A DNA stretch of 12,195 nucleotides, from positions 1 to 12,195 of the IMG/VR virus record IMGVR_UViG_2675903352_000004; one strand, 5' to 3'. A program made the position numbers and the translations under genes. A model generated the notes under the pieces. The model was given only the letters and a program-made list of their open reading frames with translations. It was not told the origin of the DNA and did no database searches. Every line of letters starts with the position of its first letter. Within the stretch, counting starts at the first letter, position 1. This document shows, piece after piece, positions 1,899-2,869 of this stretch. The stretch comes from a virus (lineage: Duplodnaviria; Heunggongvirae; Uroviricota; Caudoviricetes).

Positions 1899-2345
1899 AT
1901 GAAGCAAATATACATGCTTCGCAACGAAGCAATCAGAAACAACGCCATAGACGCAATACTCTCACTTCCGATCGACGACAAGTCACCTCACGAAGTCCAC
2001 ATTAAAGAACCAAAGCGGAGCAATCCTCAAAACCGCCTTATGTGGGCGTTATTGCAGGACGTATCACGTCAGGTGCTTTGGCATGGACAGAGACTTGCGC
2101 CGGAGGACTGGAAAGACCTGTTCACTGCCCTGTGGCTTAAGACCAAAAAACTGGAGCAACGAAGTGTGCCTGGTATCGATGGTGGCGTTGTCATGCTTGG
2201 CGTGCGTACCAGCAAAATGCGAAAGGCCAGCATGACTGAGCTTATCGAAATCATGTTTTGGTTCGGCTCAGAGCGCAACGTGCGGTGGAGTGATGACTCC
2301 CGGCGAGAGTATGAATGGTCACAACGAAAAGGTAGGGCTGCATGA
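1899..2345 (+). CDS. ninB: NinB-family recombination protein (Orf-like), 148 aa
   Basis: The pattern …PQNRLMWALLQDVSRQVLWHG…VRWSDDSRREYEWSQRKGRAA parallels lambda NinB (…DQNRKLWACLGDVSRQVEWHG…). GAGG Shine-Dalgarno 5 nt upstream of ATG 1899; the track start at 1893 is an in-frame GTG. Confidence 0.8.
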   Translation: MKQIYMLRNEAIRNNAIDAILSLPIDDKSPHEVHIKEPKRSNPQNRLMWALLQDVSRQVLWHGQRLAPEDWKDLFTALWLKTKKLEQRSVPGIDGGVVMLGVRTSKMRKASMTELIEIMFWFGSERNVRWSDDSRREYEWSQRKGRAA

Positions 2346-2869
2346 CTATCAAATCAAATACACCAGCACACGACAAGGACTGCTGGCAAACGCCGCTTTG
2401 GCTTTTTGATGCGCTGGATATTGAGTTTGGATTCTGGCTGGATTCAGCTGCGAGCGACAAAAATGCTCTGTGCGCTCACTGGCTAACTGAGGCCGACGAC
2501 GCACTCAATTCTGAGTGGATAAGCCACGGTGCAATCTGGAATAACCCACCGTACAGCAATATCAGGCCGTGGGTGGAAAAAGCCGCTGAGCAGTGCATAC
2601 AACAGCGACAGACGGTAGTGATGCTTGTGCCAGAGGATATGTCTGTCGGATGGTTCAGCAAGGCTCTGTAGAGTGTTGACGAAGTTCGCATTATCACTGA
2701 TGGACGGATTAATTTTATCGAACCATCGACAGGGCTGGAGAAGAAGGGAAACAGTAAAGGCTCCATGCTGCTGATTTGGCGACCGTTCATCAGTCCTCGA
2801 CGGATGTTTACTACCGTATCCAAAGCGGCATTGATGGCGATCGGGCAGGGCGTCAGGAGGGCGGCATGA
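2342..2869 (+). pseudogene. Phage Dam-like DNA N6-adenine methyltransferase (NPPY motif) interrupted by an in-frame amber codon at 2669-2671. The N-terminal part is 2342-2671 (109 aa) and the same frame continues to TGA 2867-2869.
   Basis: The translation contains DALNSEWISHGAIWNNPPYSNIRPWVEKAAEQC…VVMLVPEDMSVGWFSKAL, then a TAG, then [48 protein letters not shown]… in the same frame. The start overlaps the ninB stop and the stop overlaps the ninE start, so the full-length frame is the ancestral gene. Confidence 0.7.

Follow-up and report, generated by a model that had tools for sequence, protein, structure and literature searches.

The nin region and its interrupted dam gene

The stretch of DNA analysed here, called the window throughout, comprises 12,195 nt and is the early-right (nin) region of a lambdoid E. 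coli prophage. Its genes follow the lambdoid nin order P-ren-ninB-X-ninE...ninG-phosphatase-Q with overlapping stop and start codons, and this order is annotated likewise in the prophage of E. coli E2865 and in the Stx1 phage AU6Stx1 (Table 1). Position X is held by an adenine methyltransferase gene, dam. Its ATG at 2342-2344 overlaps the TGA of ninB at 2343-2345 (ATGA at 2342-2345), and its TGA at 2867-2869 overlaps the ATG of ninE at 2866-2868 (ATGA at 2866-2869). When the frame 2342-2869 is translated, it yields 109 codons, one stop, 65 more codons and the final stop. A preliminary description of this DNA had placed the start at 2342, an in-frame TAG at 2669-2671, the terminal TGA at 2867-2869 and the overlaps with ninB and ninE, all of which agree exactly with the sequence.

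Table 1. Features of the window around dam and in the remainder of the nin region, with the basis of each assignment
Feature	Position	Strand	Basis
Replication gene, 3' end	253-627	+	Gene calls and Pfam
Replication gene P	624-1325	+	Gene calls and Pfam
ren	1322-1612	+	Gene calls and Pfam
Small ORF upstream of ninB	1685-1891	+	Gene call
ninB (recombination protein NinB)	1899-2345	+	Pfam PF05772; orthologues annotated NinB in E2865 and AU6Stx1
Truncated dam frame, 109 codons and amber stop	2342-2671	+	Translation; PF05869 1-107/169; TIGR01712 1-106/165
NPPY (AAC CCA CCG TAC, residues 68-71), catalytic motif IV	2543-2554	+	Sequence; invariant in 29 homologues
Amber codon TAG	2669-2671	+	T at 2669 versus G (GAG, Glu110) in the nearest alleles, E2865 and AU6Stx1; 933W also aligned
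Orphaned remainder of dam behind the stop (65 in-frame codons and TGA)	2672-2869	+	Identical to the intact E2865 allele
Putative Shine-Dalgarno sequence AGGAGG, 5 nt before the ninE ATG	2855-2860	+	Read from the sequence; function inferred
ninE	2866-3048	+	Pfam PF05322; annotated NinE in E2865 and AU6Stx1
HNH endonuclease	5863-6429	+	Gene calls and Pfam
ninG	6404-7006	+	Gene calls and Pfam
Serine/threonine phosphatase	7003-7668	+	Gene calls and Pfam
Antiterminator Q	7665-8288	+	Gene calls and Pfam
Two small membrane-type ORFs	Between Q and the sialate-esterase gene in the listed order	+	
Sialate-esterase gene (SASA family)	9864-11717	+	

A scan of positions 1600-3600 for promoters and terminators brought up nothing new within dam, and the only terminator-like site on the plus strand of this range is a strong hairpin at 1638-1661, between ren and the small ORF, with an 8-bp stem (6 GC pairs) followed by a run of T. 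A terminator of the lambda tR2 type is expected at this position.

Between ninE and the HNH endonuclease gene an AT-rich orphan ORF is inserted on the minus strand (3552-5387), which encodes 611 residues, or 617 if counted from the first ATG. It matched no Pfam, NCBIfam or PADLOC entry, its sole match being PHROG 9230 (unknown function), and it is annotated as 'hypothetical protein' in both E2865 and AU6Stx1; its features resemble those of a moron. Upstream of this ORF, the intergenic DNA contains a tandem repeat of the hexanucleotide TATTTC at 5640-5668 (4.8 copies). The near-identical E2865 prophage has four extra units, so the repeat varies in number.

Complete E. coli genomes match the window from position 89 to about 12123, and the best coverage by a complete genome is no more than 98.2% identity over 96% of the length. 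The left 5.7 kb are E2865-like (99.9% identical), the right part being derived from another mosaic.

Family membership and ancestral codon

The gene at 2342-2869 is a phage N-6-adenine methyltransferase (Pfam PF05869, Dam; NCBIfam TIGR01712, phage_N6A_met). With Glu110 restored, the protein of 175 residues scores 218 bits against PF05869 (profile positions 1-167 of 169) and 264.2 bits against TIGR01712 (1-165 of 165), while the product of 109 residues reaches 142.5 bits (1-107 of 169 only) and 174.7 bits (1-106 of 165), respectively. Both forms thus lie above the curated cut-offs, which are 28.1 bits for PF05869 and 97.05 bits for TIGR01712, an equivalog model. About 75 bits of the Pfam score are contributed by the part behind the stop, which is far beyond chance, and the two halves therefore constitute one domain. 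The earlier proposal that methylase sequence of the NPPY type goes on past the TAG is borne out by both profiles, as they span the two halves.

The (D/N)PPY motif IV is found as NPPY at residues 68-71, and each of N68, P69, P70 and Y71 is invariant across 29 aligned homologues. Because of the stop at codon 110, however, the frame does not encode an unbroken protein that spans the entire profile (about 165-185 residues). With the small phage methylases of PF05869/TIGR01712 the window shares the profile match, the NPPY motif and the conserved N-terminal half, but unlike them its frame is translatable only over profile positions 1-107 of 169. The window's dam is a member of this family by descent, in the form of a pseudogene allele.

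Matches to the family occur in 2130 phage records. Of 5426 complete E. coli genomes 1566 carry the gene itself, as do 244 phage records (at least 95% DNA identity). The copy number per carrying genome has a median of 1 and a maximum of 5; E2865 has 3. Intact counterparts such as 933W L0094, AU6Stx1_330 and those of Nil2 and Phi24B are the same 528-nt gene, likewise placed between ninB and ninE and joined to both by ATGA overlaps, and they differ from the window in reading GAG at codon 110, where the window has a stop. The REBASE name M.EcoVT2Dam presumably denotes the copy of VT2-Sa, and the copy of 933W is annotated as similar to the methylases of HP1 and T1, the named prototypes. The DNA identity of the window's dam to its counterparts in 933W, BP-4795, mEp213, Sf101 and numerous Stx phages is 97.7% or higher (97.7% for 933W, 99.8% for AU6Stx1 and E2865), and the protein with Glu110 restored matches the Nil2 protein at 100% identity.

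Compared with the closest alleles, those of the E2865 prophage and of AU6Stx1, there is one difference in 528 nt, a G to T transversion at 2669 by which GAG (Glu110) becomes TAG. Alignment with intact prophage homologues, which the preliminary description had proposed as a check, accordingly gives GAG (Glu) as the ancestral codon. Homologues across the Enterobacterales are full length. In detail, 29 diverse full-length homologues with identities of 59-93% to the E. coli allele P0032 were aligned; all of them read through position 110 and have lengths of 174-183 residues. Column 110 of the alignment is variable (E, N, A, K, Q, D, S, R), with a stop in none of them. Homologues that naturally end at codon 110, which would have contradicted the description of the TAG as a point nonsense mutation in an ancestral full-length frame, were thus not found among these 29, and that description agrees both with the one-base difference from intact alleles and with the full-length homologues.

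Over window positions 89-5845 the E2865 prophage differs by 4 SNPs and one change in the length of the hexanucleotide repeat, and the 198 nt of dam that follow the stop contain no SNP, suggesting that the mutation is recent and that the 3' part is not yet decaying. Judged from these sequence comparisons, the TAG very likely represents a recent, strain-private nonsense allele of dam in the nin region, a natural amber mutant.

Occurrence of the amber allele

The window is identical over all 12,195 nt to contig BBVQ01000080.1 of the E. coli draft assembly GCA_001514805.1, and the TAG allele was seen only in this contig and in a re-assembly of run DRR017191. A 69-nt probe centred on the TAG matched none of 1015 places (892 complete E. 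coli genomes) and none of 117 phage records perfectly, the best matches in genomes and phage records all being one mismatch away. In addition, an exact scan for the 32-mer spanning the TAG gave no match in IMG/VR and the JGI metagenomes.

The T at 2669 could also be a sequencing or assembly error, the gene being intact in the living strain. The allele is confined to one lineage of datasets, and the contig is a short-read draft from a multi-copy prophage region in which assemblies often break within dam. However, the Logan re-assembly of DRR017191, made by an independent assembler, carries the same T in a contig that is 100% identical over 12,089 nt, even if both assemblies may share a read set. 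The index also lists the identical NCBI contig for another sample, plus two more places that are similar, and these isolates are possibly not independent. Nor can the T result from a chimera of co-resident copies, as the known variants read either CTGGAG (intact) or CTGGAT (deletion junction) and never CTGTAG. We therefore consider an error to be unlikely and take the TAG to be very probably a genuine, strain-private allele.

An exact look-up of the 109-residue product returned 40 contigs in 47 index blocks, as if the truncated protein were a common allele. This was rejected, since the TAG is restricted to the window's contig and the DRR017191 re-assembly. Among the eight other contigs listed, the six that were matched by the probe (L006 and L008-L012) end at ...GGCTCTGGA, two bases into codon 110, and the probe had no match to the remaining two (L007 and L013). 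Almost all of the '109-aa' entries are partial genes at contig ends and not amber alleles; that the contig ends coincide with the amber codon is explained by the look-up, which returns only products of exactly 109 residues. A further sequence, P0074, diverges right after residue 109 and was considered as a natural end of the gene. It turned out to be a deletion junction in a defective prophage (BFMT01000034.1; L014 4001-4450), in which codon 109 of dam is fused to DNA beside a gene of the resolvase/invertase family (Pfam Resolvase and HTH_7). In genomes that contain both the intact form and the deletion-junction form, a fork in the assembly graph would probably explain the contig ends, and the number of '109-aa' entries is probably inflated by the junction. 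Counting database entries of the 'same protein' hence overstates the frequency of the amber allele, and exact-sequence look-ups of this kind call for caution.

The same data bear on the idea that the fragment of 109 residues is selected in its own right, for example as a SAM-binding or dominant-negative protein, or that the locus is a natural split into two genes. The fragment does keep NPPY and the conserved N-terminal half, and small PHROGs families (phrog_22740 and phrog_6083) are made up of N-terminal and C-terminal pieces of this methylase. Translation of the 3' part, however, shows no usable in-frame start between the stop and Met142, the stop is common to no relative at the 1015 E. coli places or in the 117 phage records, and the sole homologue diverging at codon 110 is the deletion junction described above. 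Other lesions of dam are heterogeneous, comprising frameshifts, deletions and fusions, as random decay predicts. A selected fragment or a split gene is thus extremely unlikely compared with a recent nonsense mutation.

Readthrough of the UAG, either by a suppressor tRNA of the supE or supF type or by basal near-cognate reading, would leave dam functional. As column 110 is variable across the family, almost any inserted residue would be tolerated, and a suppressor host is therefore predicted to restore activity, as with laboratory amber mutants. The 3' part of dam is, in addition, still identical to intact alleles, but a recent mutation explains this equally well. Natural isolates seldom carry amber suppressors, which are laboratory alleles, and basal readthrough of UAG amounts to about a per cent or less, both of which count against readthrough. 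ARAGORN found no tRNA gene, and hence no element-encoded suppressor, in the 12,195-nt window. Moreover, the stop is conserved in no relative (0 of 1015 places, 0 of 117 phage records and none in IMG/VR and the metagenomes), so nothing suggests a programmed event, and we consider a dam gene kept functional by readthrough to be very improbable. The allele resembles the classical laboratory amber mutants of lambda, e.g. Pam and Sam7, in that a single-base change to UAG in a lambdoid gene is in principle rescuable by a suppressor; unlike these, it is of natural origin and affects an accessory gene that a resident prophage can dispense with, and the window encodes no suppressor tRNA.

The truncated product and the loss of dam

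The 109-residue product represents the N-terminal 62% of the enzyme, including NPPY, and 66 residues (38%) are lost from the C-terminus. Eighteen of the 64 invariant or nearly invariant positions of the family fall after the stop, namely D113, E114, R116, G121, R122, F125, N137, K139, G140, S141, I145, W146, R147, P148, P152, V159, L164 and G168. The AlphaFold model has a moderate overall confidence (mean pLDDT 73.8, pTM 0.75), which is highest in the C-terminal strands. Downstream of the stop it places strands at residues 114-119, 141-146 and 155-160, shorter strand segments at residues 125-126 and 133-134, and the terminal helix at 161-174. Going by the motif order of gamma-class methyltransferases, the conserved G-R-x-x-F of this part would be motif VIII of the adenine pocket.

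A search of the PDB by sequence gave no relative of the dam product, and Foldseek with the model returned weak matches only (best E 7.5e-3, TM 0.3-0.5). The better ones were mostly N6-adenine methyltransferases (TrmM, CamA, HsdM, METTL4), which fits the fold class, the matches being too weak for an assignment of motifs by superposition.

From the extent of the truncation, which takes away 66 residues with 18 conserved positions, three strands of at least four residues and the terminal helix, the 109-residue product is predicted to be very probably inactive. The two alternatives put forward earlier, that the gene is either inactivated or expressed only with amber suppression, are the right ones, yet they do not carry equal weight, inactivation being predicted to be much the likelier.

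We propose that a G to T transversion at 2669 changed GAG (Glu110) to TAG, so that ribosomes starting at ATG 2342 would stop after 109 residues. The product would retain NPPY but lack the three strands, the terminal helix and G-R-x-x-F, and no active fold would be expected of it, while the 3' part would no longer be translated from the dam start. Since ninE has its own AGGAGG 5 nt before its ATG, the lost coupling need not silence ninE. We infer that the loss of dam is nearly neutral, because the host Dam already methylates GATC, the specificity reported for intact family members, related strains contain up to five copies, the nin region is accessory and ninE has a ribosome-binding site of its own. 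Other prophage copies of dam are probably present in the strain, as in E2865 with its three places.

With regard to the wild-type function, the enzyme of the VT2-Sa prophage, M.EcoVT2Dam, is reported to be GATC-specific (PMC6602927, citing Radlinska and Bujnicki 2001). It is the putative counterpart of the window's PF05869 gene, or alternatively another Stx-phage methylase. For phage Phi24B, lysogen cultures were reported to express the 528-nt dam (PMC3342100).

The allele might also be non-neutral, if either the loss of Dam or a persisting 12-kDa fragment with NPPY altered induction, superinfection or host expression, which we consider very improbable. If true, this would parallel the disruption of a methyltransferase in an Stx prophage (PMC10810198) and a homologue in a Staphylococcus aureus prophage, which is reported to drive host adaptation (PMC12435837); the homology to S. 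aureus consists in a distant tblastn match (33.8%) to the phage 'mosaic phi11'.

The Stx-prophage protein in question, M.EcoPA8orf6770P, is a prophage rRNA methyltransferase that controls induction of the Stx prophage, and disruption of its gene changes induction and virulence (PMC10810198). It is likewise a 'DNA adenine methyltransferase' of an Stx prophage by annotation, and its natural disruption by IS629 changes the phenotype (PMC10810198). It belongs, however, to the MT-A70 family and has a DPPW motif, in contrast to PF05869 and NPPY in the window. In addition, it is encoded at another prophage site by gene gp5, which is co-transcribed with the upstream gp6, and it needs PNB-2, the partner encoded by gp6. 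An identification of the window's dam with this rRNA methyltransferase of Gong et al. 2023 was therefore rejected (PMC10810198).

All in all, this is a known gene in a known place with an ordinary nonsense mutation. It does provide a clean case in which an accessory prophage gene became a pseudogene very recently, through one SNP, with an identified ancestral codon and no secondary decay. The annotation should read pseudogene instead of a 109-residue 'methyltransferase', and the case has little importance beyond annotation.

Further independent lesions of dam exist in public genomes. Frameshifts are found in P0012 and P0095 (Salmonella enterica subsp. arizonae), and P0046 has an in-frame deletion of 23 codons between two CTGGAGA repeats. 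Such scattered, independent lesions are expected for an accessory gene under weak selection. Four different fusions (P0082, P0083, P0088 and P0093) replace the N-terminus of Dam up to '...SHGAIW', and in two of these four the new N-terminus comes from replication protein P or from Ren. There seems to be a recurrent breakpoint of recombination or deletion just before the NPPY motif.
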